IMG/VR virus record: IMGVR_UViG_3300045988_092126
Reading direction: 5' to 3' (one strand)
DNA: 64,000 nt
Origin: a virus
The translations under genes were made by a program, and so were the position numbers. This document shows, piece after piece, positions 1,610 through 54,185 of the stretch. The number at the start of each line of letters is the position of its first letter. Position 1 is the first letter of the stretch. The notes beneath the pieces were generated by a model. It did no database searches and had not been told where the DNA came from. It was given only the letters and a program-made list of their open reading frames with translations.

Positions 1610-2647
1610 ATGCCATTTAATATTTTAGAATCAATCACACCGGAAGAAAGACTTAACTTTTCTCAGGATTTCAGCGTAAAAAGGCCGGGCATTCTTGACA
1701 CCATCTTCCCGGATGTCAAAACACAGTTTCTGAAAGCTGAATACTACAGACTTATGGCTGGACAGAGACTTCCAGAGGTAGCATTCGTTCATGCACTTGA
1801 TACTGAAGCAGAAATCGGAACAAGACCGGGCTTCGAAAAAGTCCTGACTGAAAAGCTCTTTATTAAGAGAAAAATCAATCAGTCTGAGAGATTACAGCAG
1901 GCAATTGAAAATGGTGTGCCGGATGATGAGAATTTAAAGAAATTTGTATTTGATGATGCAGCTAATCTGTTTGAAGGAGTTGTTGCTAGAGCAAATGTCA
2001 TGAAAGGCCAATTTCTTAGCACAGGTGTTGTAAAAATTAAAGAAAACAATGTGGATATGAGCATTGATTATGGCGTTCCGTCCGATGCAAAAGTAGAAAT
2101 GACAGACTGGTCTAAACCAGATGCAGATATCATGGGTGATATCCAGAAGATGGTCGCTATTGCAGAAGATAATGGATTTGTGGTAAACAAAGCCCTTACC
2201 TCTCTCAAAATGATTAACTATATGAGAAATAACACTGCAATGCAGACCGCAGTTTTAGGAGCAGCTAACAAACGTCTTCTGACCAAACAGGAACTCGCTA
2301 ATCTGCTTATGCAGGAATACGGAATCACAATTGATCGCTGCGACGAGAAATTCAAATTCAGAAAAGCGGATGGTTCTCTCAAAACAGGAAGATACTTCAA
2401 AGAAGATGTATTCACACTGTATGAAGCAGAGCCAAACGGTTCATTTGGTACTGGACTCTGGGGCGTAACACGAGAGGAACTTGAATACAGACAGTTTATA
2501 CAAGAAGAGAACCGTTCTTTCGTAACACTGTCTATGTGGGCCACTCCAGACCCTGTGGCAGTATGGACAAAAGCATCCGGTATGTTTGTTCCAGTAGCAG
2601 CAAAAGCTAATGGCGGTATCGTAATCGGTACCAAAGCGGGGGAATAA
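1610..2647 (+). CDS. major capsid protein (lambda gpE-like family)
   Basis: 345 aa with GGAGG RBS. Length and N-terminus (MPFNILESITPEERLNF...) fit the E-type capsid family. Position after scaffold/decoration genes. Confidence 0.8.
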   Translation: MPFNILESITPEERLNFSQDFSVKRPGILDTIFPDVKTQFLKAEYYRLMAGQRLPEVAFVHALDTEAEIGTRPGFEKVLTEKLFIKRKINQSERLQQAIENGVPDDENLKKFVFDDAANLFEGVVARANVMKGQFLSTGVVKIKENNVDMSIDYGVPSDAKVEMTDWSKPDADIMGDIQKMVAIAEDNGFVVNKALTSLKMINYMRNNTAMQTAVLGAANKRLLTKQELANLLMQEYGITIDRCDEKFKFRKADGSLKTGRYFKEDVFTLYEAEPNGSFGTGLWGVTREELEYRQFIQEENRSFVTLSMWATPDPVAVWTKASGMFVPVAAKANGGIVIGTKAGE

Positions 2648-2835
2648 ACGGGCATAGTCTCGACAAGAACAGCCAGTCACCATCTGTAGCAAGTGTTAAA
2701 CACAAGTATACAGAAAGCGAGCTGTCAAGCATGACAGTGGTTCAGTTGAAACAGCTCGCAAGTGACAATGGCTATGCCCTGACATCGACAAACAAGGCTG
2801 GTATTATCTCAGAAATTTTATCTCAGCAAGGGTAG
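2611..2835 (+). CDS. start-less ORF encoding a linker plus HeH/SAP-like motif; candidate -1 frameshift extension of the capsid protein (or a 34-aa peptide from ATG 2731)
   Basis: The -1 frame relative to the capsid gene is open for 74 codons from 2611 and overlaps the last 12 capsid codons. No ATG/GTG/TTG occurs before 2731. It ends ELSSMTVVQLKQLASDNGYALTSTNKAGIISEILSQQG. A G5 run at 2638-2642 sits just before the capsid stop. Confidence 0.4.
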   Translation, partial: WRYRNRYQSGGINGHSLDKNSQSPSVASVKHKYTESELSSMTVVQLKQLASDNGYALTSTNKAGIISEILSQQG

Positions 2836-2845
2836 GTGATCTTAA

Positions 2846-3172
2846 ATGGACGAACGGCTTGTAAATGATCTGAAAGAGTATCTATCCGATGATGCGGAAA
2901 CTGACGGTATGATTTCTTTGTCTGTGAAGCGTGCAATTCGTTCGTTCAAAAAGAAACGCAACTATCCGTCTGGATATACAGATGAAAAAATCAATACCGA
3001 TATGGAATACTGTTATGATTGCATATTTGATCTGGCTCTCTATTTCCTTGTGAAACAGGGGGCCGAGTTCCAAGAATCGCACTCTGAAAATTCAGTAAGT
3101 CGAAAATGGGAATCCGAAACGGAAATATATATCAATCATGGCGTTTTTCCGTTTGCAGGAAGTTTAATTTAA
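2846..3172 (+). CDS. head-tail connector protein (gp6-like)
   Basis: 108 aa. N-terminal LVNDLKEYL..DD.ETDGMI..SVKRAI pattern is typical of gp6-like connectors. Position after the capsid gene. Confidence 0.55.
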   Translation: MDERLVNDLKEYLSDDAETDGMISLSVKRAIRSFKKKRNYPSGYTDEKINTDMEYCYDCIFDLALYFLVKQGAEFQESHSENSVSRKWESETEIYINHGVFPFAGSLI

Positions 3173-3284
3173 TAAGATGGTTGGGTCACGTGGCACAGTA
3201 TTTTTGTCCTCCCGGAGTGCCGCTGGGTTGCTTATATTCAGTAGGGAAAAGCAAATGTTAAGGGAGTGAAGAAAGGAACTGGCG

Positions 3285-3596
3285 ATGGGATGTGAACATG
3301 AATGTTTTAATGAACACCGCATAGAAGAATTAGAGAATAGTCTTCGACAGATGCAAGAGAGACAATCCGACCGCCATAAAGAGTTTTATGAGCGTATCGG
3401 GGAACTGGAAAGAAAGACAGCATTAAGTGAGAATGACTTGAACCATATCAAGTCAACTGTGGATGAGATGAATAACAATATAAAGACTCTCATGGCAGTT
3501 CCAGGAAAGCGCTATGATACAATTATTGTATGTGTTATTACGGCAATTGTCGGCGCGGTTATCGGATTTATGTTAAACGGCATTCTTCCAGTTTGA
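3285..3596 (+). CDS. XhlA-like membrane protein
   Basis: 103 aa with an N-terminal heptad region (IEELENSLRQMQERQSDRHKEFYERIGELERK) and one C-terminal TM helix (TIIVCVITAIVGAVIGFMLNGIL). This is the architecture of PBSX XhlA. Confidence 0.5.
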   Translation: MGCEHECFNEHRIEELENSLRQMQERQSDRHKEFYERIGELERKTALSENDLNHIKSTVDEMNNNIKTLMAVPGKRYDTIIVCVITAIVGAVIGFMLNGILPV

Positions 3597-3625
3597 TTCC
3601 ACTTGTAAGGGAGGACGGTGGAAAT

Positions 3626-3880
3626 ATGAATTATACAGACTTTTCAGAAGATGAAAGAAAATTTTACTTAAAAGAAGCAGGATTCGATTCCAGAGAAGAA
3701 AAACTGTTTCGTTTACGGGTTTATGGCGAGAAAACACTATGGGAAGCAGCTGAACTTATGGGGTATAGTCCAAGAACCATAGACCGAATTAATAAAAGAA
3801 TAAAGAAGAAAATTTCTAAAGTTGCCCCGATGTACTGTCGGGGCTTTTCTTTGTATTGTGGCGAAAACGTGGCGAAATAG
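3626..3880 (+). CDS. sigma-70 region-4-like HTH regulator
   Basis: 84 aa from ATG 3626 (GGGAGGA RBS at 3609-3615). EEKLFRLRVYGEKTLWEAAELMGYSPRTIDRINKRIKKKI resembles a region 4.2 HTH. Confidence 0.5.
   Translation: MNYTDFSEDERKFYLKEAGFDSREEKLFRLRVYGEKTLWEAAELMGYSPRTIDRINKRIKKKISKVAPMYCRGFSLYCGENVAK
3824..3852 (+). terminator. intrinsic terminator
   Basis: GCCCCGA-tgtactg-TCGGGGC followed by TTTTCTTT. Lies inside the 3' end of the preceding ORF. Confidence 0.6.
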
Positions 3881-4035
3881 TGACGTTCAAAAACAGAGTT
3901 CCTTCCTATATAATATAATCATAGGAGAAAACACAATGATTATGTTAAGAAACCCTTACGAGGGTATATGGGAAAAGCATCGTTCTATAGATGATATGGA
4001 TATGATTCTTGAATCCCGGACAGGAGGAACAGATT

Positions 4036-4533
4036 ATGGCAGGTTATCCGTATTATCCGCAACAACCAATAATAAACAATCCATACGGACAGATACAGCC
4101 GTATCAGGACAGGCTGGCGCAATTGCAGAATAATTACCAACAGGCAATGCCTTATGGTCAAATACAGATGCAACAGTTACAGCCGGTTCCACAATCACCT
4201 ATGCTTCAAGGACAGATGGTGGATGGGATTGATACTGTAAAGGCTAAAGATGTGGATATGTCCGGCAATCCTGTTTACTATCCAAAAACAGACGGAACTG
4301 AAATTTACAGAAAACAGCTTCAATCCGATGGAAGGAGCAGAATTTTTGTTTACCGACTCGTAAATCCAGATGAACAGCAATCTAAGCAAGATGAAAAGCA
4401 GATTGATATTGAAGCAATGTTTAATCAGCTTCGGAATGATGTTTGTTCGGAGATTTCTGAAATAAAGAATATGTTTCCGACGCAGATGTCGGGGACATCG
4501 GAACCTAAGCAGAATGGAGGTAGGCAGAGATGA
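4036..4533 (+). CDS. Gln/Pro/Tyr-rich protein, unknown function
   Basis: Start chosen at ATG 4036 behind a GGAGGA RBS. N-terminus MAGYPYYPQQPIINNPYGQIQPYQDRLAQLQNNYQQAMPYGQIQMQQLQPVPQ, followed by an ordinary globular C-terminal half. Confidence 0.5.
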   Translation: MAGYPYYPQQPIINNPYGQIQPYQDRLAQLQNNYQQAMPYGQIQMQQLQPVPQSPMLQGQMVDGIDTVKAKDVDMSGNPVYYPKTDGTEIYRKQLQSDGRSRIFVYRLVNPDEQQSKQDEKQIDIEAMFNQLRNDVCSEISEIKNMFPTQMSGTSEPKQNGGRQR

Positions 4534-4775
4534 CATTCAATCCAAACGCCATGATGAAAAAGCAATTTGAGAAAATGATCTCTCAGAGGTTCGGAAGTGT
4601 TGACAACATGATGAACGATATGAGCAAATTTGCAGGTAACAATCCAACATTGAAAAATGCTTTGGATTTATATAAAAAAGGTGATACAGACCAGTTACAT
4701 CAAATACAGCAAAATGTATTTAATGAAAAGCACTTATCTCCAGATGGAATTATACAAAAATTCCTTGGATTATAA
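4530..4775 (+). CDS. hypothetical protein
   Basis: 81 aa with GGAGG RBS. ATGA start/stop overlap with the upstream gene. Confidence 0.45.
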   Translation: MTFNPNAMMKKQFEKMISQRFGSVDNMMNDMSKFAGNNPTLKNALDLYKKGDTDQLHQIQQNVFNEKHLSPDGIIQKFLGL

Positions 4776-4871
4776 CACTTCCCCACAATTGGGTGATTAA
4801 AAATCGCTACAATTCGGGACGACAGCCGCGGATGTCTCCTATTGTAAATAAAATTTAAGGAGACTAAAAAC

Positions 4872-5681
4872 ATGATGAATGGTTCAAATTATAGTCTTAG
4901 CGACATTGCTGCCGCTACAGGCTCTAATAATCGCGCCAATGATATGTGGGGCGGTGATGGCTTTTCACTTATCTGGCTCGTCCTGATCTTCGCAATCTTC
5001 GGCTGGGGAGGTTTTGGCGGCTGGGGCGGCGGCTTTGGCGGTAACGGTGGAAACGGTGCGAACGGTGCCGGTTTCCAAGGATGGGCTACCCGTTCAGATA
5101 TTAATGAGGAATTCGCCCTTAATGATATTCAGAATGGTATCAGAGGTATTCAGCAGGGTATCTGCGACAGCACGTATTCTCTTAACAATACCATGCAGAG
5201 TGGCTTTAATGGTATGAATGTCGGAATGCTTCAAGGCTTCAACGGCGTTCAGCAGGCAATCAATGCTGATACTGTAGCCGGTATGCAGAATACCAACGCA
5301 TTACAGTCTCAGTTAGCAAACTGTTGCTGTGAAACAAGAGAAGCTATACAGGGTATCAACTACAACCTTGCTACCAACACTTGTGCTCTCCAGAACACAA
5401 TGAACAACAACACCAGAGATCTTCTGGAAAACCAGAACAGCAACACAAGAGCAATCCTTGACTTCCTGACTAACGATAAGATTGCAACATTACAGGCAGA
5501 AAATACTGATCTGAAACGTGCTGCGTCTCAGGATCGTCAGTCTGCACTGCTTACAACTGCTATGGCTTCACAGACTCAGCAGTTAATCAATGCAATTAAT
5601 CCGGCGGCTATTCCGGCATATGTTGTTCCGAATCCGAATACCTATTACGGTGGATGCGGATGTAACAGCGGATGCTGCTAA
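4872..5681 (+). CDS. membrane-anchored Gly-, Asn/Gln- and Cys-rich protein, unknown function
   Basis: 269 aa with AAGGAG RBS. One TM helix flanked by Gly runs (GGDGFSLIWLVLIFAIFGWGGFGGWGGGFGGNGGNGANG), a long N/Q-rich helical region with CCC and C motifs, and a C-terminus YYGGCGCNSGCC. Confidence 0.6.
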   Translation: MMNGSNYSLSDIAAATGSNNRANDMWGGDGFSLIWLVLIFAIFGWGGFGGWGGGFGGNGGNGANGAGFQGWATRSDINEEFALNDIQNGIRGIQQGICDSTYSLNNTMQSGFNGMNVGMLQGFNGVQQAINADTVAGMQNTNALQSQLANCCCETREAIQGINYNLATNTCALQNTMNNNTRDLLENQNSNTRAILDFLTNDKIATLQAENTDLKRAASQDRQSALLTTAMASQTQQLINAINPAAIPAYVVPNPNTYYGGCGCNSGCC

Positions 5682-5711
5682 GTAACTCACCCTTAGAGGT
5701 TGACTAATTCT

Positions 5712-5743
5712 AAGAGGTGGGTTGCGGCTCACCTCTTATTTTG
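5712..5743 (+). terminator. intrinsic terminator
   Basis: AAGAGGTG-ggttgcggct-CACCTCTT followed by ATTTT. Confidence 0.6.
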
Positions 5744-5759
5744 ATTGAGAGGTAAAGAT

Positions 5760-6185
5760 ATGAGTTGTAAAAATGTTTGTAAGCTCTGCAACCATCTTGT
5801 AATCAGCCAAGCCGTTGCGTTTACAGGAGGCAATCTTGTAATCACACTTCCGGCAGGCAGTTACAACAATGGAGAGAAATATTGTATTGTTGTTGCGCAA
5901 AGCATACCGGAAGCCACTACAATTACTGCTCCGGTAATGATTCAGATAGGAACAGGAACAACTTTGTATCCGCTAGAGAATCGTTGCTGCGCACAGGTTA
6001 CGGCTTGCGGAATAAGAACCAGAACAAAGTACGCAACCAGAGTAGCTACAAGTGCAACCGGCGGAGTATTCAAGATGTTAGGAAATCCGGCTTGTAGTCC
6101 AAGTAACAATTTAACAGCAATTGATGGTACAGCCCCAACGACAGACACACCTGTTACACAGGCTGCCAGAAAGGGGGCAATGTAA
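5760..6185 (+). CDS. Cys-rich small protein, unknown function
   Basis: 141 aa from ATG 5760 (GAGAGG RBS). MSCKNVCKLCNH..., internal CC and four further Cys residues, and a Thr/Ala-rich, beta-like composition. Confidence 0.5.
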   Translation: MSCKNVCKLCNHLVISQAVAFTGGNLVITLPAGSYNNGEKYCIVVAQSIPEATTITAPVMIQIGTGTTLYPLENRCCAQVTACGIRTRTKYATRVATSATGGVFKMLGNPACSPSNNLTAIDGTAPTTDTPVTQAARKGAM

Positions 6186-6811
6186 TGCATAAAGTTGCAA
6201 TGGAAATGGGAAAATGGGCTATGGAAAAAGCCAAAGCACATGGATTTGACAATCTTAGTTCTCAGGACTGGGATGATCTGAAAGATTGCTTAGAAGCGGT
6301 AAAATGCGCAATCTGTGCAGATAAAGATTACAGAATCGTAGAAGCTATGGACGAATGTGAACAGGAAGAGAAGTATCTTGGACGCATGGGATATGACAAC
6401 TATCGTTACGCAAACGGCAGATTTGCACCAAAAGGCAGAGGAAGCCGAATGGGATATATGCCGTATCTCCATATGCAGGATGACGACTGGGTAAGTGAAT
6501 ATCCGAGCAATCCAGAGTTTGAACGTAATATGTACCGCATGGGCTATCATCCAGACCGTAGTGATATGAGAATGGACGGTATGAACAATAGGCAATCCAG
6601 ATATGGTGAAACCTACGACAGATACAGCGAGAATCGCAGACATTACCATGATTCCAAAGATGCTGAATCTAAGAGAAAAATGGACGATTCCATGAAAGAG
6701 TATACAGAAGATATCATCCGCAATATGAAAGAAATGTGGGATGATGCAGACGCATCAATCAGACAGCAGATGAAAACTGACTTAACACGTTTCATACAGC
6801 AGATGAATTGA
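6185..6811 (+). CDS. hypothetical protein with RMGY repeats
   Basis: 208 aa with TAATG overlap with the upstream gene. Has four (G)RMGY motifs, an Arg/Tyr/Asp/His-rich centre and a Cys cluster (CLEAVKCAIC) near the N-terminus. Confidence 0.5.
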   Translation: MHKVAMEMGKWAMEKAKAHGFDNLSSQDWDDLKDCLEAVKCAICADKDYRIVEAMDECEQEEKYLGRMGYDNYRYANGRFAPKGRGSRMGYMPYLHMQDDDWVSEYPSNPEFERNMYRMGYHPDRSDMRMDGMNNRQSRYGETYDRYSENRRHYHDSKDAESKRKMDDSMKEYTEDIIRNMKEMWDDADASIRQQMKTDLTRFIQQMN

Positions 6812-6827
6812 ATATGAAATGAATTTT

Positions 6828-6860
6828 GCCCTTGTTACAGGAATGTAGCAGGGGCTTTTT
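6828..6860 (+). terminator. intrinsic terminator
   Basis: GCCCTTG...CAGGGGC stem (one G-U pair) followed by TTTTT. Confidence 0.5.
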
Positions 6861-6886
6861 AGTTGAGAAAAGGATGGTGATAAGCC

Positions 6887-7273
6887 ATGCTAAGACAATT
6901 TTACATGAACGGCGACCTATGGAGGGTGCAGTTTGTATCTCCGCATGACAGCGTGTTAATTGACCGTACAGGCAATAGAACACTTGGAGTATCGGATTAT
7001 TCCACACATATTATTTCAATCGCAAATAACCTGTATGGAGAACTTCTGAACCGTGTATTTATTCATGAGCTAGGGCATTGCGTGATGTTCAGTTATGGTC
7101 TATTGCCAGAACTTCATCGTATGGTCAAGAAACGGTATTGGGTGGATGCAGAGGAATTTGTATGCAATATTCTGGCAGACTATGGACAGTTTGTTATTGG
7201 CACAGCCAGAGATATTTTAGGAAACCAGTTCACATATGTAGCTCCCATTGGGGCAGAAAGGATGATTGCATAG
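6887..7273 (+). CDS. putative zinc metallopeptidase (HExxH)
   Basis: 128 aa with FIHELGHCV (HExxH) at the centre. Size and layout resemble small SprT/ImmA-type phage peptidases. Confidence 0.5.
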   Translation: MLRQFYMNGDLWRVQFVSPHDSVLIDRTGNRTLGVSDYSTHIISIANNLYGELLNRVFIHELGHCVMFSYGLLPELHRMVKKRYWVDAEEFVCNILADYGQFVIGTARDILGNQFTYVAPIGAERMIA

Positions 7274-7516
7274 ATGGCAAAAGCAGAAAACACAATTATT
7301 TTTGATGGCATTCAGTACAATCCCGGTGATGAATTGCCGGATTTAGGCAGTTGGGTATGTACAGATGCAAGAGGTATGGTTCGTGATTACGAGGGACTTT
7401 CAAAAGACGTGTCAAAGCTCCCGCATTATGTACAGAGTGGTTCTTCGGCGTTGTGCCTTGATACTTCTGAATTATACGAATATCACAAACCTACTGATAC
7501 ATGGTACAAACTGTAA
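7274..7516 (+). CDS. hypothetical protein
   Basis: 80 aa. The ATG abuts the upstream stop. GAAAGGA RBS. Confidence 0.4.
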   Translation: MAKAENTIIFDGIQYNPGDELPDLGSWVCTDARGMVRDYEGLSKDVSKLPHYVQSGSSALCLDTSELYEYHKPTDTWYKL

Positions 7517-7529
7517 AGGAGAAGCGCAT

Positions 7530-9773
7530 ATGGCATTAACAGCAAAGAAAGTATATGCAATATTAAAACGCCAGATTTCCGATATGGAAGCAAAATTAAA
7601 TAGCCCTGTAAGATACAGAGGTACAGTTGCGACTGCTGATTTGCTTCCATTAAATCCAGACATTGGCGATATGTACAATATCGAGTCTAAATCTATTTAC
7701 GGCGAAGCAGGAATGAATGTGGCATGGAACGGCGTAGTATGGGACACTATGGGCGCCCCGATTGATATGTCACTTTACATTAAATCAAACGAATTAGCGG
7801 ATTGGGTAAAACAGCAGAACAAGCCGACATATACAGCTGAAGAAGTTGGAGCGTTGCCGGCTGATACAAAGATTCCAAGCAAAACCAGTGAATTGCAGAA
7901 TGACTCTGGATTCTTGACTAAAATTCCAGACAATTATCTTTTCGAAACAGACAAAACACTGAACGTATCTGGAAAAGCTGCTGACGCAAAGGCTACCGGA
8001 GATAAAATCACAGAATTGTCAGCTGATATATCAAATAAATTGAATAAGAACCAAGGTTCGGAAAACTCTGGCAAGATTGCCGGAATTAACGAATCTGGCG
8101 ATATCGTTCCGATGTTTCCAGTAAGCGTAGATTACAACGAAGAAACAAACTGCCTTGAGTTTGGGTCTGATCAAAAAATGGAGCTTAATAAAGGTATCAA
8201 CCTTGATAGCACTCTCACGAAGACTGGATATGCCGCTGATGCAGGCGCAGTTGGAGAAATAACTAATTCACTAAAGGAAGATTTGTATGTTAAAACTTAC
8301 AACATTTTTGATGTTAATTTTTTACCTCGAGCATTCATTCCTCTCACAGGCTCTCACGGCGGTGAACTGTTTCTTGATAATAATGATAATTATTCGGCAA
8401 CAAATGAAACTATTAATGTTCTTCCGAATACTCAATACACCTTTTCAAATGGTAGTGAATCTATCCCTTATGAGTTACAGTTAAGTGTTATTTTTTATGA
8501 CAAAGATATGAGGTTCTTAGGTTATGCAAGTAACACCATTAATAATTTTTCAAAATTTTTTAAATTTACAACTATTGAAAACACTAATCATCTAAGATTT
8601 CAACTTCGTTCCACAGGAAAAGGCTCGGATATTCCTAATATAAAAAAATGGCAGTTAAACGAGGGTAATCTATTACCTTATTTGGATAATTATGTGTTAA
8701 ATTGTTCAACGGATAATATTGGAAATGAATTAACCGATATAAACATTGATAATCCACAGGTCAGAGATTTTGTTGAAGATGTTGATTACACAAATCAAGA
8801 ATACACAATAACACAAGTTGGTACATATTCTGCACCATCTGTTTATTATAGAAAAGATTGTGGTTTTCCAATGGTTGTTAAATGGAAATTAAATAGAGAT
8901 ATAAAAAATCAAATATTATATATTTCTACAAACAAATTAATTCCTATTGCTGATACAGTTGCTGTGAAATCATATGATATTCCTTGTGGAATAAGTGATT
9001 TTGCTGTATATAATTTAATCCCAAATGCAACATATTACTATAAAGTTTGTGGTACTGATTTTGACAACAATTTAATTGTAATTAAAGAAGGGTGTTTTAC
9101 CACTATTGGACAAGTGCATATGTTAAAAATTGACGGATTAAAAAATGTTCGTGATTTAGGTGGTTGGCTTACGCCAAATGGTAAAATTAAATACGGATTA
9201 TTATTTAGAGGTTGCGAACTTGATGATACCGGAGTCGGTGTGGAATTAACACATGAAGGTAAAAAAGAACTTTTTGATAGAATAAGAATAAAAACTGACA
9301 TTGATTTAAGAACGGATGTTGGTAATACAAAATCGCCTATCGGTACTCTTGTTGATTATAATTGTTATCCTATTCAACCATATGATACAGGTTTGAAAGA
9401 CACTATAACAAAAGGATTAATAAAATCTATTTTTGAAAAAATTGAAGAAAAGTTATCAAAAAGTAATGCGATATATTTCCATTGCCAAGGTGGTAGAGAT
9501 AGAACTGGAACACTTGCTTTTTTGATTCTAGGTGTTTTAGGTGTGAGCGAATCCGATATAGCAAAAGATTATGAACTTACAGAATTTGCGTATGCAAGTT
9601 ATAAGGCTGATAATCCGAATACGTCTAGGAAGTTTGCTCAATATGTATCTATGGTAAGTTATATTAAAACTTTCAATGGGGCAACATTTAATGATAAGAT
9701 TATTAGTTATCTTTTGAGCATCGGAATTAGTCAAGCCACTATTAACAATATTAAGTCGTATATGGTTGCTTAA
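7530..9773 (+). CDS. fiber-like structural protein fused to a C-terminal protein-tyrosine-phosphatase (CX5R, Y_phosphatase3-like) domain
   Basis: Start at ATG 7530 (AAGGAG RBS). The N-terminus YRGTVATADLLP..GDMYN and the SGKAADAKATGDK / TGYAADAGAVGE motifs are typical of prophage fibers. The C-terminus has NVRDLGGW (about 9143) and the P-loop HCQGGRDRTG (9480-9509). Confidence 0.7.
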   Translation: MALTAKKVYAILKRQISDMEAKLNSPVRYRGTVATADLLPLNPDIGDMYNIESKSIYGEAGMNVAWNGVVWDTMGAPIDMSLYIKSNELADWVKQQNKPTYTAEEVGALPADTKIPSKTSELQNDSGFLTKIPDNYLFETDKTLNVSGKAADAKATGDKITELSADISNKLNKNQGSENSGKIAGINESGDIVPMFPVSVDYNEETNCLEFGSDQKMELNKGINLDSTLTKTGYAADAGAVGEITNSLKEDLYVKTYNIFDVNFLPRAFIPLTGSHGGELFLDNNDNYSATNETINVLPNTQYTFSNGSESIPYELQLSVIFYDKDMRFLGYASNTINNFSKFFKFTTIENTNHLRFQLRSTGKGSDIPNIKKWQLNEGNLLPYLDNYVLNCSTDNIGNELTDINIDNPQVRDFVEDVDYTNQEYTITQVGTYSAPSVYYRKDCGFPMVVKWKLNRDIKNQILYISTNKLIPIADTVAVKSYDIPCGISDFAVYNLIPNATYYYKVCGTDFDNNLIVIKEGCFTTIGQVHMLKIDGLKNVRDLGGWLTPNGKIKYGLLFRGCELDDTGVGVELTHEGKKELFDRIRIKTDIDLRTDVGNTKSPIGTLVDYNCYPIQPYDTGLKDTITKGLIKSIFEKIEEKLSKSNAIYFHCQGGRDRTGTLAFLILGVLGVSESDIAKDYELTEFAYASYKADNPNTSRKFAQYVSMVSYIKTFNGATFNDKIISYLLSIGISQATINNIKSYMVA

Positions 9774-9868
9774 CTAAAGAGGGCTTTAGTTAACTATTAA
9801 AACCACAGGCACAGCGCATTTAATCATTATAAACAGTTGACAATAAATAACAGATATGGAGGAATCAC

Positions 9869-11071
9869 ATGAAAACGCAGAAAACAAAAGGATTTTATGA
9901 CCGTGAAAATGATACGGTACATATTTTTATTCCGCCTGCTCCGACAGAATCGGAGAGAGGTGGAATTACTGCAAAAGAAAAAACAACGGAATCCCTCGAA
10001 GTTACTATTGATTCAGCTACGGGGAAAGCATATGTAGCACTCGACAAAACACTTTCAAAGACAGGCGAGGCGGCGGATGCAGCAGTTGTAGGCGAAAAAC
10101 TCACATCAATGGGTGTCGCAATTGAAAATGTAAAGGAAGATAAAGCCGATAAAACATCTCTTGCACAAACCGACAGAAAGCTTGATGCACTCTGGAAACT
10201 CAATCAGGGTATCAGCTATGAATTTCAGACAGATGAAGCAGAAGCATATCAGAAAACGGTTCCGAGTGGTGCAAAGATGGTAAGCATTAAAAGTATTGGC
10301 GGTAAGACGATTGTCTGGAATCAGTTAAATTTGAATAACGAAAATTCTGTTACGAAAAACGGTATTTCTTTTATAAACAATAAGGACGGTTCGTGGACAA
10401 TAACTGGAACTTGTAGTACATCTAATGGCGGCAGTGCTGACGTACTAATATACGGATTTGCAGTTAAATATGTATCAGGTCATAAATATTTAGTTAAAGC
10501 CGATAAATATTCTGATGGAAATTATGGTTTTGCAATTAACGGCAGGTCTTACCCACTAAAAAAAGCAATAATTATTAATTACGCTTTTAATCCAGTAATA
10601 TTTGTAAACGACAAGGCAACCGTGGATAACGTTACGATGCGAATGAATATTTTCGACCTCACCCAAATGTTCGGCGCAGGTAACGAACCATCCACCCCAG
10701 AGGAATTCGAAGCTATGTTTCCAGCAGACTATTATCCGTACAATGCAGGCGAGTTGATGAGCGCACCTGTGAATGAAGTTGTATATTTAGATACCAAAAA
10801 TCAAGAAACATCATATCCAATCCCACAAGCCATTCTTGACCTAGAGGGTTATGGAGAGAGTGGGAATTTTGTTGATTTTGTGGAAAAGAAATACCACAAA
10901 GGGGACAGGACGATTGATATATCAGACATTATGGGAGATACATTCCAACAACCTCTTGAAGTTGAAGTAGGCGGTACACTGACGTTCAAAAACAGCAACG
11001 GTAATGATTACAGAATCCCTGTACCAAGCTCAGAGGAATATGTAATATCTTTAGCGGAGGTAGCAAAATGA
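9869..11071 (+). CDS. fiber / receptor-binding-like protein
   Basis: 400 aa with GGAGGA RBS. Shares the LSKTGEAADAAVVGEK fiber motif with the preceding gene. AT-rich central part. Confidence 0.55.
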   Translation: MKTQKTKGFYDRENDTVHIFIPPAPTESERGGITAKEKTTESLEVTIDSATGKAYVALDKTLSKTGEAADAAVVGEKLTSMGVAIENVKEDKADKTSLAQTDRKLDALWKLNQGISYEFQTDEAEAYQKTVPSGAKMVSIKSIGGKTIVWNQLNLNNENSVTKNGISFINNKDGSWTITGTCSTSNGGSADVLIYGFAVKYVSGHKYLVKADKYSDGNYGFAINGRSYPLKKAIIINYAFNPVIFVNDKATVDNVTMRMNIFDLTQMFGAGNEPSTPEEFEAMFPADYYPYNAGELMSAPVNEVVYLDTKNQETSYPIPQAILDLEGYGESGNFVDFVEKKYHKGDRTIDISDIMGDTFQQPLEVEVGGTLTFKNSNGNDYRIPVPSSEEYVISLAEVAK

Positions 11072-11220
11072 CTGAAATGCAGAAGAAAATGATAGAGAAA
11101 CTTGGTCTGGCTGAATCAGACTTTGAGAAAAAAGAAACGGTGGTAAGCAATGAAGAACGTATCAATGACCTTGAGATTGCTGTCTGCGAACTGCTTGAAA
11201 CACTTGGGAATGCTGAATAA
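11068..11220 (+). CDS. small protein downstream of fiber genes (XkdW/X-position)
   Basis: 50-aa ORF (MTEMQKKMIEKLGLAESDFEKKE...) with ATGA overlap with the fiber gene. Below the ORF-track length cutoff. Confidence 0.35.
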   Translation: MTEMQKKMIEKLGLAESDFEKKETVVSNEERINDLEIAVCELLETLGNAE

Positions 11221-11236
11221 GAAAAGGAGAAATAAA

Positions 11237-11413
11237 ATGATGGCAAAAGTATATTTTAACAGATTGATCGTAGGAACTATTACATATGATGCAATTCCTG
11301 AGAAATATCAGGATAAAGTAAGAGAATATGGTATTGAGTATGTGAAAAAAGGAAAACTTCCTGTAGAAGAATATGAAATGCTGTATAAAGAGGAATATCC
11401 AGAGGGTAAGTAA
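11237..11413 (+). CDS. XkdX-like small phage protein
   Basis: 58 aa from ATG 11237 (AAGGAGA RBS). ...YVKKGKLPVEEYEMLYKEEYPE matches the V.KGKIT.EEY..ITG pattern of the XkdX family. Confidence 0.5.
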   Translation: MMAKVYFNRLIVGTITYDAIPEKYQDKVREYGIEYVKKGKLPVEEYEMLYKEEYPEGK

Positions 11414-11554
11414 TTAACACCAGTTTAAAAAATTGAACAAACAGGAGAAAATCAAAATGGAATTTAATATCAAGACCAGGCTTGCTCATGCTTGGAGGGC
11501 GTTAATTATTGACTATTGGACACCAATAATATATAATGATTATAAATTCATTAT

Positions 11555-11746
11555 ATGGAGGTGAGTTCGATAAAAGTAGAAAGAAATATCATGATTAACA
11601 AAGCTGGTGGAAACGCAGGAAAAGAATCTGTCAACTATAAAATATCACTTCCGTCAGAAGCAGTTCGGATGATAGGTGTTACCAAAGAAGACAGAAAAGT
11701 AATTCTCGAATATGATGAAGAGAAAATAACAATCAAAAAAGCATAA
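11555..11746 (+). CDS. AbrB/SpoVT-like (MazE-fold) DNA-binding protein
   Basis: 63 aa. ISLPSEAVRMIGVTKEDRKVILEYDEEKITIKK fits a swapped-hairpin AbrB-type domain. Start uncertain (11555 or 11591). Confidence 0.45.
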   Translation: MEVSSIKVERNIMINKAGGNAGKESVNYKISLPSEAVRMIGVTKEDRKVILEYDEEKITIKKA

Positions 11747-11867
11747 TAAAAAGGAGTTAGGTTCCCGACTACCAATCAAAAAAAACCTAACTCCAACACC
11801 ACAAAGGGTACAGTATTATTATAACATGGTACTCTCCCTTTGTGAACCCAAAAGGAGGGTATTTTTT

Positions 11868-12863
11868 ATGAGAGATAAATTCGTGAATGGGTTCATGACA
11901 AAACTGTATGGAGAAATTCCGGAAGAGTATCTGGAAACGATCAGAAACAAACTGGCGTTGTATGTAAATGATTTTGATATCAGTCAAAGAGAAACAGCAG
12001 TTGTAAAGTATACTGGATATTTGCCGGATTTTTACAAAACTTACATTGTAAGTAGAAAAATCGAGGGTTTGAGTAAAAAGACGCTCGAACTCTACAATCT
12101 TTATCTGAATGATTTCTTTTTCACATTCAATAAAAAAGCTGAAGATATTACCTCAAATGACATTCGTGTATATCTGTATAATGCTCAGGAAAGCAGAAGT
12201 CTAAGTAATCGAACACTTGATAGCCGCAGAACTGCCATTCATGCATTTTTCGAATGGGCTGCAAACGAGGGATATGTGGGCAAAAACCCATGCAGATCAA
12301 TCAAAAATATCAAATATGAGCGTATAGAAAAACAACCTCTGACAGATATGGAACTGGAAAGAATCAGGCAAGCTTGCGAAACCGTACGTGAAAAAGCACT
12401 GGTTGAATTTCTGTATAGTACCGGAGCCAGGGTTACAGAAGTGTGTGGTGTAAAGAAAACAGATATAGACATTTACAAAGGTGAAGTAGTTGTTTTGGGG
12501 AAAGGCAACAAGCATAGAACAACATACCTAAACGCTCGTTGTAAATTACTTTTAAAACAATACTTTGCAATTAGAGATGATGAATCGGAATATCTTTTTG
12601 TAAGTGAAAGGAAACCACATAAGGTACTCAAAAAAGAAGCAATTGAAAGAATTGTACGAATAATCGGTGAACGGGCAGAACTGGACAGACCTCTAACACC
12701 GCATCTATTTAGGCATACTCTTGCGACTCTTATGCTTCAAAGAGGTACGCCGATTACTGAGGTGCAGAAGATTCTTGGACATGTCAACATTAACACGACA
12801 ATGATCTATGCAAAGGTATCTGATGAAGATGTAAAAGTGTCTCATATGAAATATGCAATATAA
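11868..12863 (+). CDS. tyrosine recombinase, XerC/XerD-like
   Basis: 331 aa from ATG 11868 (AGGAGGG RBS). SAM-like N-domain, ARVTEV (Arg I), HLFRHT (H-x-x-R) and GHVNINTTMIYAKV (His plus catalytic Tyr). Confidence 0.85.
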   Translation: MRDKFVNGFMTKLYGEIPEEYLETIRNKLALYVNDFDISQRETAVVKYTGYLPDFYKTYIVSRKIEGLSKKTLELYNLYLNDFFFTFNKKAEDITSNDIRVYLYNAQESRSLSNRTLDSRRTAIHAFFEWAANEGYVGKNPCRSIKNIKYERIEKQPLTDMELERIRQACETVREKALVEFLYSTGARVTEVCGVKKTDIDIYKGEVVVLGKGNKHRTTYLNARCKLLLKQYFAIRDDESEYLFVSERKPHKVLKKEAIERIVRIIGERAELDRPLTPHLFRHTLATLMLQRGTPITEVQKILGHVNINTTMIYAKVSDEDVKVSHMKYAI

Positions 12864-12886
12864 GATTTTTGAAGGGAGAAATCGCT

Positions 12887-13285
12887 ATGAGAGGATTGAA
12901 ACGCCAAAAACAGGCAGTGTATTGGTCAAGGGTAACTGAAGACCTTGACGGGATAGACACAATCAAAACGTACCAAAAGCCAGAATTACATCACCTCTCC
13001 GTATCTGCGACTGCCGGAACGCCAGAGGAATTATCCGCCGGGTACGTCCCTGATTACGATAGGTACATCACGAATTTTGACCGTAGCTTCAAACCGCAAA
13101 TTGCAGATGTGTTCTGGATAGACTGCAAACCGGAATTGAACGAATCTGGAGAACTTATCTTAGGCGAAGGCGGGGAGCCTACAGTTCCGCCAGATTACCG
13201 TCTGAAAAAGATTCTCGATACCCAGAAAGGCAATGTGGCACGATACGGTATTAAGTACACAGGAGATGGCTCAGATGGCGAATAA
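12887..13285 (+). CDS. head-closure / head-tail adaptor-like protein (by position)
   Basis: 132 aa with GAAGGGAG RBS. First gene of the resumed head-tail joining series. No diagnostic motif. Confidence 0.35.
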   Translation: MRGLKRQKQAVYWSRVTEDLDGIDTIKTYQKPELHHLSVSATAGTPEELSAGYVPDYDRYITNFDRSFKPQIADVFWIDCKPELNESGELILGEGGEPTVPPDYRLKKILDTQKGNVARYGIKYTGDGSDGE

Positions 13286-13793
13286 GACTATCAAAATGGA
13301 ACTGTCGCATAAATCTATACAGGACACAATAAAACAGCTCAGGCAGTACCAAAACAGCCTTAAAAGTAAGAATGAATTATTTGTTCGTCGACTGTCTGAA
13401 CTTGGAATCCCTGTCATTGATCAGAATATTTCACTGTCGCAGGGCGATTCCGATAAAAATCACAGCACCTACATCAAAATCAATTCGTTCGGCGATTACT
13501 CACAAGCAACTTTAGTATGTGAGGGCGCAGGTCTGTTGTTCATAGAGTTTGGTGCCGGAATCCATTACAATACCCCGGCAGGCTCAAGCCCGCACCCGAA
13601 AGGGCAGGAACTTGGATATACAATCGGTTCTTACGGTCATGGTAAAGGAAAAAACGATTCTTGGACATACACGTCTGAAACTGGCGAATGGGTAAGATCA
13701 TATGGTACCGAAGCCACTATGCCGGTTTATAAAGCAAGCATGGAAATCATACAGAACATTCGGAAAATCGCAAAAGAGATATTTTCTACTTAA
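13275..13793 (+). CDS. HK97 gp10-like tail-component protein (tentative)
   Basis: 172 aa from ATG 13275 (AGGAG RBS 9 nt upstream). Overlaps the upstream gene. Size and position fit gp10-family neck proteins. Confidence 0.4.
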   Translation: MANKTIKMELSHKSIQDTIKQLRQYQNSLKSKNELFVRRLSELGIPVIDQNISLSQGDSDKNHSTYIKINSFGDYSQATLVCEGAGLLFIEFGAGIHYNTPAGSSPHPKGQELGYTIGSYGHGKGKNDSWTYTSETGEWVRSYGTEATMPVYKASMEIIQNIRKIAKEIFST

Positions 13794-13843
13794 ACTTCAT
13801 ACTGAAACATACTATTCAAAATGGTATACTATAACATATAAAA

Positions 13844-13871
13844 GCATCTGCAAACAAGCAGGTGCTTTTTT
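13844..13871 (+). terminator. intrinsic terminator
   Basis: GCATCTGC-aaacaa-GCAGGTGC followed by TTTTTT. Confidence 0.6.
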
Positions 13872-13903
13872 CATGCAAAAACATAGAAAAGGAGAATGTA
13901 AGC

Positions 13904-14542
13904 ATGTTAGTAGAAACAATGATTATCAGAAAAGTAGAAACGAGCATTGTCACAAGCCTAGATGTCGCGGAGACTTTTGGAAAAGAACATAAAAGAGTAT
14001 TGCAGGACATTAGAGAATTAGGATGCAGTGAAGAATTCGGACAGCACAATTTCGTGCCTTCCTCATATACAAGTATTCAGAATAAAAAGCAACCTATGTA
14101 CTGTATGACAAGAGATGGGTTCACACTTCTTGTTATGGGATACACTGGCGAAAAAGCCATGAAATTCAAAGAAGGATATATCCGCCAGTTCAATGCAATG
14201 GAAAAAGTTCTTTTAGGGAAAATAAGAGAACGAGACAAAGGCATTGCAGTGAGACAGGCGTTGACCAATGCACTTAAAGAATCTCAAGAAAATGAGAGAA
14301 TACATGGTCATGCGTATTCGACATATACAGATATGGTATATCGTACATTGTTTGGCAAAACTGCAAAACAACTTAGAGAAGAAAAGGGAATCTCTACCAA
14401 GGACAATCTGAGAGATTTCCTCACTGAAGAAGAATTAAAAGCAGTTCAATCAAAAGAAATGCTTGTTAGCGGATTGATTGACTGTGGATGGGGATATTCT
14501 CAAATAAGAGATTTCCTAAAGGACAGTCTCAAAATATGTTAG
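13904..14542 (+). CDS. Rha-family phage regulatory protein
   Basis: 212 aa from ATG 13904 (AAGGAGA RBS). VTSLDVAETFGKEHKRVLQDIREL... is the characteristic Rha N-terminal domain. Confidence 0.8.
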   Translation: MLVETMIIRKVETSIVTSLDVAETFGKEHKRVLQDIRELGCSEEFGQHNFVPSSYTSIQNKKQPMYCMTRDGFTLLVMGYTGEKAMKFKEGYIRQFNAMEKVLLGKIRERDKGIAVRQALTNALKESQENERIHGHAYSTYTDMVYRTLFGKTAKQLREEKGISTKDNLRDFLTEEELKAVQSKEMLVSGLIDCGWGYSQIRDFLKDSLKIC

Positions 14543-15009: not shown

Positions 15010-15222
15010 ATGAGTAAAGATAAATTACAATGGCTGAAAGCTGCGGGAATCAGAGCTGTTAAGACAATTGCTCAGACAGCAGTTGCAACAATCGGAACCG
15101 CGACAGTCCTTGGAAGCGTTGACTGGAAGATGGTCGTATCCGCGTCCGTTCTTTCCGGCGTTTTATCCTTGCTTACATCTGTAGCAGGGCTTCCAGAACT
15201 GAAAACAAGCGCAGATGAATAG
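15010..15222 (+). CDS. holin, r1t / LL-H-like family
   Basis: 70 aa. IRAVKTIAQTAVATIG....VDW......LSGVLSLLTSVAGLPE matches the r1t-type holin pattern (AIKTFAQ...VDW...LTS.A.G.P). Two hydrophobic helices. Confidence 0.65.
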   Translation: MSKDKLQWLKAAGIRAVKTIAQTAVATIGTATVLGSVDWKMVVSASVLSGVLSLLTSVAGLPELKTSADE

Positions 15223-16778: not shown

Positions 16779-19700
16779 ATGCCTGACAACACAATAGATA
16801 GCCTTGCGATAGAGGTCAGCAGTAACGTATCAAATGCAAGTAAATCCATTGATGATTTATGCAATAAACTGAATCGTCTGAGTAGCCGTATGTCTGAGAG
16901 TATCAAGCATCTTAGAGACTTTTCAGCTTCCGTAGGTACGGTCAATTCTGCTGTTCAAGCACTTAAATTAGACAGGCTTGATTTATCAACGATAAACAGT
17001 CAATTGCAACAGTTTGTTCAGTCTATGAGTGCGCTCGGTAGCCTGAACTTGAGAAACAACGGATTAAACTCATTCGTAAATGCAATCCGCAGACTGAACG
17101 AAACATTAAACTCCACAGGTGATGTGTCTGGAAAGATTCAGAACATGATTTCCGAATTATCTGGTCTTAGCAGTATTCCAGACGTATCAAACAACGTGAA
17201 CCGGTTTGTTTCTTCATTGGCAAGATTGGCGAATGCAGGTGGCTCTATTGATGCAGTTACATCAAAACTTCCAAATCTTGGTGAAGAACTCAGAAAAATC
17301 ATAGTTTCGTTCTCTGGAATAGGTAATATCTCTCAACCAATTAATACATTTGTTCAGTCAATTTCACAGTTGGCAAATGCAGGAGATAAAACTGGAAAGA
17401 CTGCAACTCAGCTTAATGATTTGGCTAATAGCTTAAAATTATTCTTTCAGACAATGAGTACTGCTCCAAGAATTAGTAACAGCACAATTCAAATGACACA
17501 GGCTATTGCTCAATTGGCAAACTCTGGGGCAAATGCTGGTAGGGCGGCAAGGTTTACTGCGAGTGCTTTTTCCAGACTGGGACAGGGTGCGGCTGCTTCG
17601 ACGGGAAAAGTTAGAAGACTCGGTAATGCCGTTGGAAATGTAGGAAGTAAAGCTAAAAAAAGCTTACCTAGCATTATGTCCTTGGTTGCGAAGTTCTGGA
17701 CGTTGAAATTTGTTGTTGGAAAATTCGGTAGCGCAATTGAAAGTTCCATGAACTTCCTCGAAGATTATAACTACTTTCAAGCGGCGTTCCGTCAGGTAGC
17801 AGATAAAGCAGGAAAAACTTGGTCGGAAGCAGGGTATGACTCCGCAGAAGCATACGCAGATTCATTCAGCCAGAGAGCCAGAGAACTTACATCTAAAATG
17901 TCTGGATTTGATGTTTCTGACAATGCGATTCTGACCTCAAATAAAACCGGTAAGTCACTTGGTATGGACCCGTCCATGCTTTTAAATTATCAAGGCCAGT
18001 TTGCACAGTTATCATCATCTATGGGAACGACTTCTGAACAGGCTTTAAAGCTGTCGAATGCGTTAACTATGATCGGCGCAGACCTTGCATCTGTTAAAAA
18101 TCTTGATTTTAAAACAGTTTACGAAAACTTATCCTCTGGATTAGTAGGAATGAGCCGTGCTGTAGATAAATATGGCGCGAATATTCGTGTGGCAAACTTA
18201 CAGCAATACGCTTCGAATCTCGGACTGCAAACAGCTGTATCAAAGATGGACCAGGCAAGCAAAGCAATGCTGAGGACAATAGTGATACTGGATTCTACAC
18301 GGTACGCATGGGCGGATATGGCAAATACGATAAATATGCCAGCCAACCAGTTACGTATACTTCGTGCAAATTTAGTATCCTGCGCCAGAGCATTAGGGAA
18401 CATCTTTATGCCTGTAGTTGCGGCAGTGCTTCCATACATCAATGGTCTCGTAATCGCATTTCAAAGACTTTTGACATACATTGGTTCACTTCTTGGAGTT
18501 GATACCAAAATTGGAAATATGTTCGGTTCTATCGGTAGCGGAAGTGAAAATCTCTCAAACGCACTTGATACTATAGACGATTCTAGTCTTTCAGATGTTG
18601 ATGATACTACAAAAGATACCAGTGACAATCTGAAAAATGCGACTAAAAACGCAAAGAAGCTCAAACAGTTCCTTGCATCCTATGATGAATTAGAGGTTAT
18701 GAGCAAAGACGACAGTTCTCTGTCAAACCTTGCAAATTCTAAGATTAAAACGCCTGCTCTTGACACATCTGCCCTTGACGCAGGAATGCTCAATGATGCG
18801 TTGGATAAGCTTCTGAATGAATACCAGAAGAAATGGGATGCCGCCTACAACTCAATGGAAAATAAGGCCATGGCGTTCGCGAATAAGGTTACAGACACAT
18901 TTAAGAAACTTGCAAAAGCCGCAGAGCCTACTACAAAAGCTTTGAAAAATCTCTGGAATAACGGATTGAAACAGCTCAGAGACTTCACATGGACAGCATT
19001 AAAAGATTTCTGGGAACATTTTCTAAAACCACTTGGGAAATGGACATTAGGAGAAAAAGGATTACCACGATTAATCAATGCTTTTAACGATTTTCTTGTA
19101 AAAATTAACTGGGATAAAATCAATGCTTCCCTTGTGCAATTATGGGATGTATTAGAGCCATTCGCTGAGAATGTCGGAACAGGATTGCTTGATTTCTTTG
19201 ACGATTTCTTTGACAAGGCGGCAGACGGAGTGAACAAACTCCCTGATCTGATTGACAAGTTTAAAGAGTTTATCGCGGGATTCTCACCAAAGCAAGCACA
19301 ATCTATCGGTTATTTCCTCGGACAGCTTCTGACTGCATTTATGGCGTTCAAAGGACTTACATGGTTCGGGGGCATTTTCGGTAAAGATGGAGTGATAGGC
19401 AAAGGCATTACCATGTTAGCGGCACATCCATACGCTTCGATAGCGGCAGGGCTGGGACTTACCGTCGCCGCGCTTGATAAGTTTGGAGTGATTGATGTTG
19501 ATTGGGACGGATTATGGACAAGAATTGGAAATCTCAAAGACGTAATTGTGAATTTCATCAAAAATATTGATTGGGATTCATTGGTAAAAACAATCGGTGA
19601 TGTATGGGATGTATTTCAGCCGTTTGCTGAGGGATTCGCAGACGCATTTATAAATTTCTTTGACATAATGCTCAATGACATTGGAGCACCACTAATTAAT

Positions 19701-28380: not shown

Positions 28381-28384
28381 ATAA

Positions 28385-54149: not shown

Positions 54150-54185
54150 AAATCTGATCTAAAGTATGGTTGTTTTTTACTGACA

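Follow-up and report, generated by a model that had tools for sequence, protein, structure and literature searches.

Phage plasticity zones with morons, such as the b region of lambda, hold dispensable mosaic genes, within late operons or next to them, that have their own promoters and terminators, lie beside a recombinase gene and vary between close relatives. A region sharing some of these traits lies in a 64,000-nucleotide (nt) stretch of viral DNA, IMG/VR record IMGVR_UViG_3300045988_092126 (the whole stretch is called the window below). It is a block of 9.7 kb (positions 3173-12886) between an adaptor-like gene and a stopper gene of the late operon, comprising a conserved set of non-standard genes, a cassette of fibre-like genes and, at its right edge, the gene for a XerA-type tyrosine recombinase.

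Parts of this block recall two described systems. Neck passage structure proteins of the lactococcal 936 and P335 phages, of 500-900 amino acids (aa), are optional and non-essential, and are encoded with the head and neck genes (PMC6669499). Their first 130-180 residues are near-identical, and their C-terminal parts fall into seven unrelated groups with carbohydrate-binding or esterase-like domains (PMC6669499). Rin, from Bifidobacterium prophages, is a XerD-like recombinase distinct from the prophage integrase, and is encoded beside receptor-binding genes that have constant N-terminal and variable C-terminal parts (PMC6109161).

Composition of the block

An earlier note, made from the letters of the window, had read the whole 9.7 kb as an integrative element that the Xer-like enzyme excises or moves. 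Comparison with relatives makes it highly probable that the block is a composite region of the phage backbone and not such an element. The account as a whole, an old plastic zone of the late operon in three layers with an optional recombinase, we judge to be probably right; the block would then have been inherited vertically, as part of the operon, instead of being inserted into it. The comparison took in around 100 related gut-phage genomes of 75-80 kb; it used 170 fetched loci, each extended by ±10 kb and compared with the proteins and DNA of the window. From these, 63 non-identical sequences cover both flank genes (the spanning relatives), 92 distinct junctions were scored for the state of the recombinase, and 77 unique versions of the fibre cassette were distinguished. 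The anatomy of the block and the three evolutionary behaviours of its parts are seen directly in this material, as is the lack of any att-like repeat, empty site, inversion or integrated copy.

The island reading has several features in its favour: the recombinase lies at one edge, its stop at 12863 being, as the earlier note had it, 23 nt from the stopper ATG at 12887; the genes look non-structural, and regulators and terminators of their own accompany them; in a Monoglobus prophage whose capsid protein is 45% identical, the same head-tail series is unbroken; and a few shorter variants of the block exist. The note had itself named occupancy of the site in all close relatives as the finding that would count against it. 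All 63 spanning relatives are occupied: in none are the two flank genes adjacent, the gap between them being 1534-10074 bp (median 8490), and the block is also kept in the more distant, 85-kb relative MT835477. The earlier failure to find flanking direct repeats by eye was borne out by a repeat scan of 2500-14000 and an edge-versus-edge word search, neither of which gave anything above chance; between 3100-3300 and 11740-12900 the longest shared word measures 8 nt in direct and 9 nt in inverted orientation, just as in shuffled sequences.

Nor is 3173-12886 a single accessory unit, as had been proposed, since its three parts have had different histories. Inheritance of the cargo is independent of that of the recombinase: 59-63 of the 63 spans have the cargo genes, an intact recombinase is found at only 51 of the 92 junctions, and the left 4.5 kb is conserved in MT835477 (proteins 45-79% identical), where no recombinase was detected at the locus. 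The rare short variants join 3803 to 11986, 4553 to 12887, 4918 to 11501 and 5743 to 11501. They do not resemble site-specific excision, because they have four left and three right ends, with filler DNA or 9-bp microhomology at the junctions. Taken together, these results leave an excising or mobile island as a most improbable explanation.

The conserved left part

The left part of the block (3285-7777) holds the following genes.

3285-3596, + strand: XhlA-type coiled-coil protein, 103 aa, with a C-terminal membrane segment (phrog_937, a 'hemolysin' PHROG, E 1e-12)
3626-3880, + strand: helix-turn-helix (HTH) protein resembling sigma-70 region 4, 84 aa (PF04545, E 7e-4, sub-threshold; phrog_36, E 3e-6)
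4036-4775, + strand: 165-aa Q/P-rich protein (phrog_21718) and 81-aa protein, conserved
4872-5738 (including a terminator), + strand: 269-aa protein (phrog_16490, E 8e-66)
5760-6855 (including a terminator), + strand: 141-aa Cys-rich protein and 208-aa charged protein with RMGY repeats
6887-7516, + strand: 128-aa protein with a HELGH metallopeptidase motif and 80-aa protein (phrog_1233, E 2e-10; phrog_13742, 'peptidase', E 2e-4)

Genes from 3285 to 7273 occur in 59-63 of the 63 spanning relatives, with median identities of 91-98%; the XhlA-type and HTH genes are present in all 63, and the 269-aa gene in 60. In MT835477 the order is kept from the HTH gene through those for the 165-, 81-, 269-, 141-, 208-, 128- and 80-aa proteins to the fibre N-terminus, straight after which come homologues of the stopper, tail-completion, terminator and tube genes. 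Identity to the window is 62% for the HTH protein, 60% for the 269-aa, 79% for the 141-aa, 59% for the 208-aa, 57% for the 128-aa and 77% for the 80-aa protein. The left 4.5 kb is thus as old as the lineage, being kept in nearly all spanning relatives and collinear in MT835477. Its genes are backbone genes, unlike canonical structural proteins, and not recent cargo. The earlier statement that the genes of the block do not belong to the head-tail series is therefore right in so far as they are non-standard, and wrong if it is taken to mean recent cargo, since they are backbone throughout the lineage.

A membrane segment, a stretch rich in Gly and a Cys-rich C-terminus bearing the motif CGCNSGCC mark the 269-aa protein, and the 80-aa gene always stands before the fibre gene. 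The sigma-like HTH regulator that had been proposed at 3626-3880 is suggested by a PF04545 match that falls under the Pfam cutoff. All three intrinsic terminators that had been listed were recovered as terminator-like hairpins: the hairpin at 3824-3844 falls in the 3' end of the HTH gene, that at 5711-5738 lies 3' of the 269-aa gene, and that at 6828-6855 follows the 208-aa gene and has an indel hot spot behind it in relatives. These hairpins would cut the left part into several transcription units, and small gains and losses occur at them. Promoters are predicted at 2779, 3886 and 5745, besides the one at 11509.

The fibre cassette

Following the 80-aa gene, two fibre-like genes lead into and fill a hypervariable cassette (7778-11500).

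7530-9773, + strand: fibre-like protein 1, 747 aa, with a C-terminal PF13350 (Y_phosphatase3) domain (E 3e-27)
9869-11413, + strand: fibre-like protein 2, 400 aa, and two small genes (50 and 57 aa)

The start of fibre 1 was corrected from 7365 to the ATG at 7530. Architecture and motifs are consistent with the fibre label that both genes had been given; fibre 2 and the small genes have no match in Pfam or the PDB, and sequence searches of the fibres against the PDB gave the phosphatase domain only. The XkdX-type identity proposed for the small genes was not upheld.

In relatives, 1.8-8.5 kb separates the 80-aa gene from the stopper gene, and 127 clusters of open reading frames (ORFs) are found in the 77 cassette versions. 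The usual plan is one to three large proteins, each often with small ORFs behind it. Conservation falls away in steps: 7530-7777, which holds codons 1-82 of fibre 1, is present in 126-142 loci, the stretch up to 8284 in 30-60 and 8300-9700 in only five. The start of fibre 2 (9869-10142) is common to around 35 loci, the remainder being rare. The homology breakpoints at 7777, 8284 and 10142 lie in or just past conserved N-terminal modules, the latter two just 3' of a shared peptide motif, TLxKxGxAADAxxVG, which occurs three times in the window, each time encoded by a different DNA sequence. In its C-terminal half, fibre 1 has a lowered GC content of 0.29-0.32. An identical recombinase protein may be accompanied by differing fibre C-termini, among them Y_phosphatase3 and GDSL lipase domains, and in one case by an IS110 insertion.

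This pattern suggests modular receptor-binding or adhesion proteins swapped by homologous recombination. The constant N-terminal modules would presumably dock the fibres on the virion, and the C-terminal domains would be exchanged between co-infecting relatives, with crossovers in the conserved N-terminal coding sequence, just past the TLxKxGxAADAxxVG linker, and in the conserved right flank. The fibres are likely determinants of host adsorption and strain specificity.

Individual loci show further variation. GDSL lipase C-termini occur in locus L244 and the IS110 transposase lies inside the cassette of L246; in L007 a fibre C-terminal segment matches the endolysin of this phage itself. Six loci (L100, L124, L130, L139, L141 and L143) have the first fibre gene split at the same point, into N-terminal ORFs of 174-222 aa and C-terminal ORFs of 503 aa, which might reflect a frameshift, either fixed or programmed, or a fibre truly made of two parts.

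The recombinase module

The third part (11501-12886) is a recombinase module, at the left edge of which homology resumes at 11495-11501 in four independent comparisons with relatives.

11509-11537, + strand: strong promoter-like site, TTGACT-17-TATAAT (promoter scan)
11555 or 11591 to 11746, + strand: AbrB/MazE-like small gene (phrog_2329, E 7e-16; PF04014, E 0.097)
11753-11867, + strand: structured leader of the recombinase gene, 115 nt (fold z-score -4.9 against shuffles)
11868-12863, + strand: XerA-type tyrosine recombinase, 331 aa, catalytic residues intact

The Xer-like tyrosine recombinase that had been recognised at the right edge of the block is confirmed. Its start was corrected from 11826 to the ATG at 11868, which has a good ribosome-binding site ahead of it. 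The protein scores 235 bits against the NCBIfam XerA model NF040815 (cutoff 220) and matches PF00589 (1e-39) and PF13495 (4e-8), a SAM-like core-binding domain; no arm-binding domain was recognised. Its nearest solved structure is P. abyssi XerA (4A8E, E 6e-37), with which the catalytic R, K, HxxR, H and Y align (TGARV, GKGNKHR, HLFRH, LGH and IY). The AbrB-like assignment of the small gene upstream, made in the earlier note, is suggested by the PF04014 match, which is sub-threshold.

Pairing in the first hairpin of the leader is kept by compensatory changes, with six pairs changed on both sides among 13 variants, and its 20-nt loop is conserved while the stem changes. The second part can form the pairing CACAAAGGG...CCCTTTGTG, or pair an anti-Shine-Dalgarno stretch with the ribosome-binding site; in one relative both the ribosome-binding site and its leader partner are changed. 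The same leader stands upstream of both recombinase alleles, which are 47% identical, and all 79 occurrences of its loop motif in the loci precede the recombinase. No Rfam family matches it. A 9-bp inverted repeat in the leader encloses just 27 bp. With its own promoter-like site, an AbrB-like DNA-binding protein and a leader RNA able to mask the ribosome-binding site, the module would be self-regulated, and the covarying leader gives a starting point for asking how such recombinases are restrained.

A 16-nt near-copy of the left arm of the leader (ACCACAAAGGGGACAG) lies inside fibre 2 at 10893-10908, in direct orientation and 905 bp upstream; the number of matches of this kind expected for the window is around 0.02. 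This near-copy is the sole candidate for a second recombination site and was set aside as probably due to chance; recombination there would only truncate fibre 2.

Among the 92 junctions the recombinase is intact at 51 (allele A at 40, allele B at 11), decayed at 12 and absent from 29. Decay has occurred by at least seven different lesions. Some genes are reduced to a 3' remnant (from residues 218-221, 251, 281 or 285), to the 5' half or to an internal piece; in others there is a frameshift or a deletion at a microhomology. The exact 331-aa protein was found in 482 collection blocks, all from phage contigs of ~75 kb and none above 200 kb. From these counts, the recombinase appears to be functional where present, yet dispensable and repeatedly lost.

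Role of the recombinase

Homologues 33-38% identical and equal in size are encoded by the Terrisporobacter phage TPELB_ph1, the Clostridium perfringens phage phiCp-D and a circular 48.5-kb C. botulinum plasmid. In all three the enzyme gene is co-oriented with the late operon and follows the last fibre, deacetylase or XkdX gene, with a holin and a lysin next. ParM is encoded in phiCp-D and in the C. botulinum plasmid (which also has XkdX, xerA and holin genes), and TPELB_ph1 has a separate integrase. The unannotated faecal contig MT836842 has a 44% homologue, also co-oriented, after large unassigned proteins and before an amidase, and homologues annotated as xerA are common on Firmicutes plasmids.

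Because homologues hold the same post-fibre place in phages and phage-plasmids of Clostridia, an auxiliary, Cre-like role on the circular DNA of the phage itself is favoured, as a tentative proposal. The recombinase would leave the block in place and, like Cre in P1, would resolve multimers or help the phage DNA to circularise and to persist outside the chromosome; it would therefore be dispensable for lytic growth and open to repeated loss. The dimer-resolution Xer that the earlier note had listed as an alternative is thus the best fit among its suggestions, given the likewise placed homologues in ParM-bearing Clostridium phage-plasmids, and should be read as a conditional one.

The window encodes a second enzyme of this class.

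52920-54149, + strand: second tyrosine recombinase, 409 aa (PF00589, E 9e-17)

It lies directly after the replisome-organiser and DnaC-like genes, is 39% identical to its counterpart in MT835477, is found on no contig above 200 kb, and is related at ~25% to integrases of integrative Streptococcus satellites. It may be the primary integrase or resolvase of the lineage, and the non-coding gaps beside it, 54150-54501 and 55255-56170, could hold its site or an origin. As this second recombinase is conserved lineage-wide, the Xer-type enzyme is not the sole candidate for an integration function. A few lox/dif-like palindromes occur elsewhere in the window, among them two with 11-12-bp arms and 6-8-bp spacers at 28383-28413 and 35761-35790, the former perfect, AT-rich and situated between the tail genes and the endolysin; no link of either to one of the recombinases has been established.

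Competing explanations

Were the Xer-type enzyme the integrase of lysogeny, its attP would lie in or beside the leader at 11753-11867, and integration would open the phage genome between fibre cassette and stopper. This would suit the temperate hallmarks of the genome (a CI-like HTH gene at 32843-33196, Rha, and Bro-N/ORF6C), the variable cargo adjoining the recombinase gene as in the lambda b region, the strong conservation of the 5' region across alleles only 47% identical, and the frequent decay, which would fit lineages turning virulent. It is nevertheless unlikely. The enzyme is of the XerA type and lacks a recognised arm-binding domain; a prophage scan of 185,579 species genomes with stopper and recombinase queries revealed no integrated copy and no close relative (best match 34%, in Fusobacterium); the 482 collection blocks are all of phage context, and exact-protein look-ups of both recombinases returned phage contigs only. 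Homologues are likewise placed in ParM phage-plasmids and in a phage with another integrase, and the second recombinase is kept lineage-wide. A relic in decay, or a selfish passenger, of no present function to the phage, would account for the presence of an intact gene at only 51 of 92 junctions, for the seven or more independent kinds of lesion and for the 29 genomes without a trace. It too is rather unlikely, considering that the protein, where present, is 94-100% conserved over hundreds of samples with its catalytic residues intact, that two divergent alleles are both kept full-length, that compensatory changes maintain the leader pairing, and that the module has its own promoter-like site and partner gene.

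A DNA invertase of the Rin-shufflon or hsdS-switch type, flipping fibre C-terminal segments or a promoter, was among the alternatives of the earlier note. Precedents exist in Rin, a XerD-like enzyme flanking variable receptor-binding segments in Bifidobacterium prophages (PMC6109161), and in a 37% homologue in MT835621 with an hsdM-int-hsdS-hsdR layout; the fibres have constant N-termini and variable C-termini, and the enzyme gives weak matches to NCBIfam invertase models. Yet every cassette ORF is on the + strand, no inverted crossover repeats were found, and the 9-bp inverted repeat of the leader encloses only 27 bp. When the cassette of the window was compared with every locus by minus-strand BLAST, and the 77 cassette versions with one another, the sole inverted match was a 160-bp intergenic piece, on one contig, beside a truncated recombinase gene. 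Variation is by replacement and not by permutation of a fixed set, and inversion is accordingly very unlikely here. Broader still is the idea that the module, made up of the AbrB-like protein, the leader with its covarying hairpin and conserved loop, and a XerA/IntI-related enzyme, is a fibre-associated device of many Firmicutes phages, which captures or exchanges cassettes site-specifically, or flips a phase-variable locus of the host, by way of folded or non-canonical sites that escape the repeat searches made here; the module would then always sit at the 3' end of a fibre cassette. We regard this as very improbable. An integron was rejected, the match to TIGR02249 being 99 bits against a cutoff of 265 and the leader motif occurring only upstream of the recombinase; no attC-like hairpins were found in the intergenic regions of the cassette.

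Several points weigh against the favoured account of a plastic backbone zone and a Cre-like enzyme. No dif- or lox-like palindrome lies near the recombinase gene (11.4-13 kb), the leader element is single in each genome, and neither ParA nor ParM was found among the window ORFs scanned, those of at least ~180 aa. The MT835621 homologue stands in an invertase-type layout, so that family membership alone leaves the reaction open, and a homologue search with the fibre N-terminus returned only unnamed proteins of the same clade. Since loci were taken at ±10 kb, adaptor-stopper spans above ~10 kb are under-sampled. The metagenomic contigs are non-independent samples, and assembly artefacts are possible for some of the short variants.

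With regard to MT835621 itself, the recombinase gene has hsdM on one side and hsdS on the other, in a type I restriction-modification system (4002-13033 of this phage-like contig, locus L264), an arrangement that is the classic layout of a phase-variable specificity switch.

Flanking genes and genome setting

The string of + strand genes from 2846-3172 to 12887-13285 is as the earlier note described it. The flank genes are as follows.

2846-3172, + strand: adaptor-like protein, 108 aa, left flank (all-alpha AlphaFold2 (AF2) model, predicted local distance difference test (pLDDT) 83)
12887-13285, + strand: stopper/head-closure protein, 132 aa, right flank (AF2, pLDDT 87, and Foldseek)

The left flank gene comes directly after the major capsid gene (1610-2647). 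The connector-like label that it had been given is suggested by its top fold match, the HK97 gp6 adaptor (3JVO), which is non-significant (E 1.6, template-modelling score 0.46-0.51); the NF5 neck is also among its best, likewise weak, matches. On the right flank, head-closure identity is upheld by the stopper fold. The protein has no match by sequence in Pfam, PHROG or the PDB, and its model, built from a profile of 49 distant homologues, has as its top Foldseek match the stopper of phage 812 (8QGR, E 0.0099, probability 1.0). Further matches are SF1141, the neck proteins of 7-7-1, Milano and XM1, the T1 stopper and SPP1 gp16 (PDB entries 8QGR, 2KZ4, 9RKS, 8FWE, 9L0E, 7KJK and, for the SPP1 gp16 connector complex, 7Z4W). 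Beyond the stopper, 14561-14968 matches the tail-terminator family phrog_78 weakly (E 2e-3) and 15328-15822 matches tail-protein families, which agrees with the earlier view that the head-tail series resumes at 12887. The series is thus very probably interrupted at the 9.7-kb block. A Rha antirepressor gene (13904-14542; PF09669, 1e-32), found in only 27 of the 63 spanning relatives, and an r1t-type holin-like gene (15010-15222; PF16945, 3e-13) are interspersed among the genes for tail completion, the terminator and the tube, indicating that the late operon has further insertion slots.

The window covers most of a tailed-phage genome of 75-80 kb, ~11 kb of which lies outside it. Other landmarks are listed below.

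84-482, + strand: MuF-like gene at the head of the late gene string, followed by a scaffold-like and a small head protein gene
1610-2647, + strand: major capsid gene (PF03864)
16779-21755, + strand: tape-measure gene
between the tape-measure and endolysin genes, + strand: DUF6711 protein and a 1688-aa protein with leucine-rich repeat (LRR) and Big_3 domains
28614-30005, + strand: endolysin

A LytTR-type response regulator gene, with receiver and LytTR domains, adjoins the endolysin gene on the - strand (30118-30933); it is unusual for a phage to carry such a regulator with no obvious kinase. Near it is the CI-like HTH repressor gene (32843-33196, - strand). The early genes past these regulators encode Bro/ORF6C, a single-strand DNA-binding protein (SSB), RecT, a replisome organiser and a DnaC-like protein. 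IMG/VR holds 423 relatives by capsid and 170 by stopper, mostly contigs of 70-80 kb with differing start points (varied also among those of 75-79 kb); one IMG/VR contig of 125 kb may be a concatemer or contain a host junction. The close phage matches in GenBank are all unannotated faecal contigs. The phage is a widespread siphovirus of the human gut, of 75-80 kb, and its host is probably a member of the Clostridia. LoVEphage was ruled out as the lineage, being a Bacteroides phage with tRNAs and a reverse transcriptase.

Relation to known systems

The fibre cassette is most readily compared with the neck passage structure. Both have a constant N-terminus and a swappable C-terminus, here phosphatase-like or a GDSL esterase, and the fibre genes here, placed between adaptor and stopper, are dispensable in rare variants. 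Unlike neck passage structure proteins, with which they have no sequence match, those of this lineage are encoded by up to three tandem genes and may have a tyrosine-phosphatase-like tip, which is unusual. This common gut lineage would keep fast-evolving, enzyme-tipped fibres in an unusual place, between adaptor and stopper.

The order of fibre genes followed by a Xer-type gene recurs in TPELB_ph1, phiCp-D and the C. botulinum plasmid. There, holin and lysin come next, at the end of the tail module, whereas here the stopper is next and the module stands between head and tail genes; moreover, no ParM was found among the ORFs scanned here, unlike the two homologue replicons that carry it. The recurrence of this order in phages and phage-plasmids of Clostridia is of interest for recombinase biology. 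As with P1 Cre/loxP and plasmid Xer resolution, the enzyme is a tyrosine recombinase without a recognised arm-binding domain; it would be carried on a circular, extrachromosomal replicon and be dispensable for lytic growth. This resemblance concerns a likely working mode and not membership. No lox- or dif-like site was found beside the gene. The likeness to the Rin shufflon is one of layout only, as opposite-oriented segments, inverted crossover sites and inversion polymorphism are all absent here.

The block also differs from moron plasticity zones, both in its adaptor-stopper location and in having a left part that is near-invariant across the lineage instead of sporadic. For annotation, this means that cargo plus an integrase-like gene in a phage operon need not be a mobile island, and that comparing relatives can separate a conserved backbone from a swapping cassette and an optional recombinase. 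Plasticity regions in late operons, fibres of modular build and episomal Xer-type enzymes are each already known. Unusual here are the placement between adaptor and stopper, the tandem fibres with enzyme tips, one of them resembling a tyrosine phosphatase, the repeated finding of a Xer-type gene after fibre genes, and a recombinase leader that covaries.

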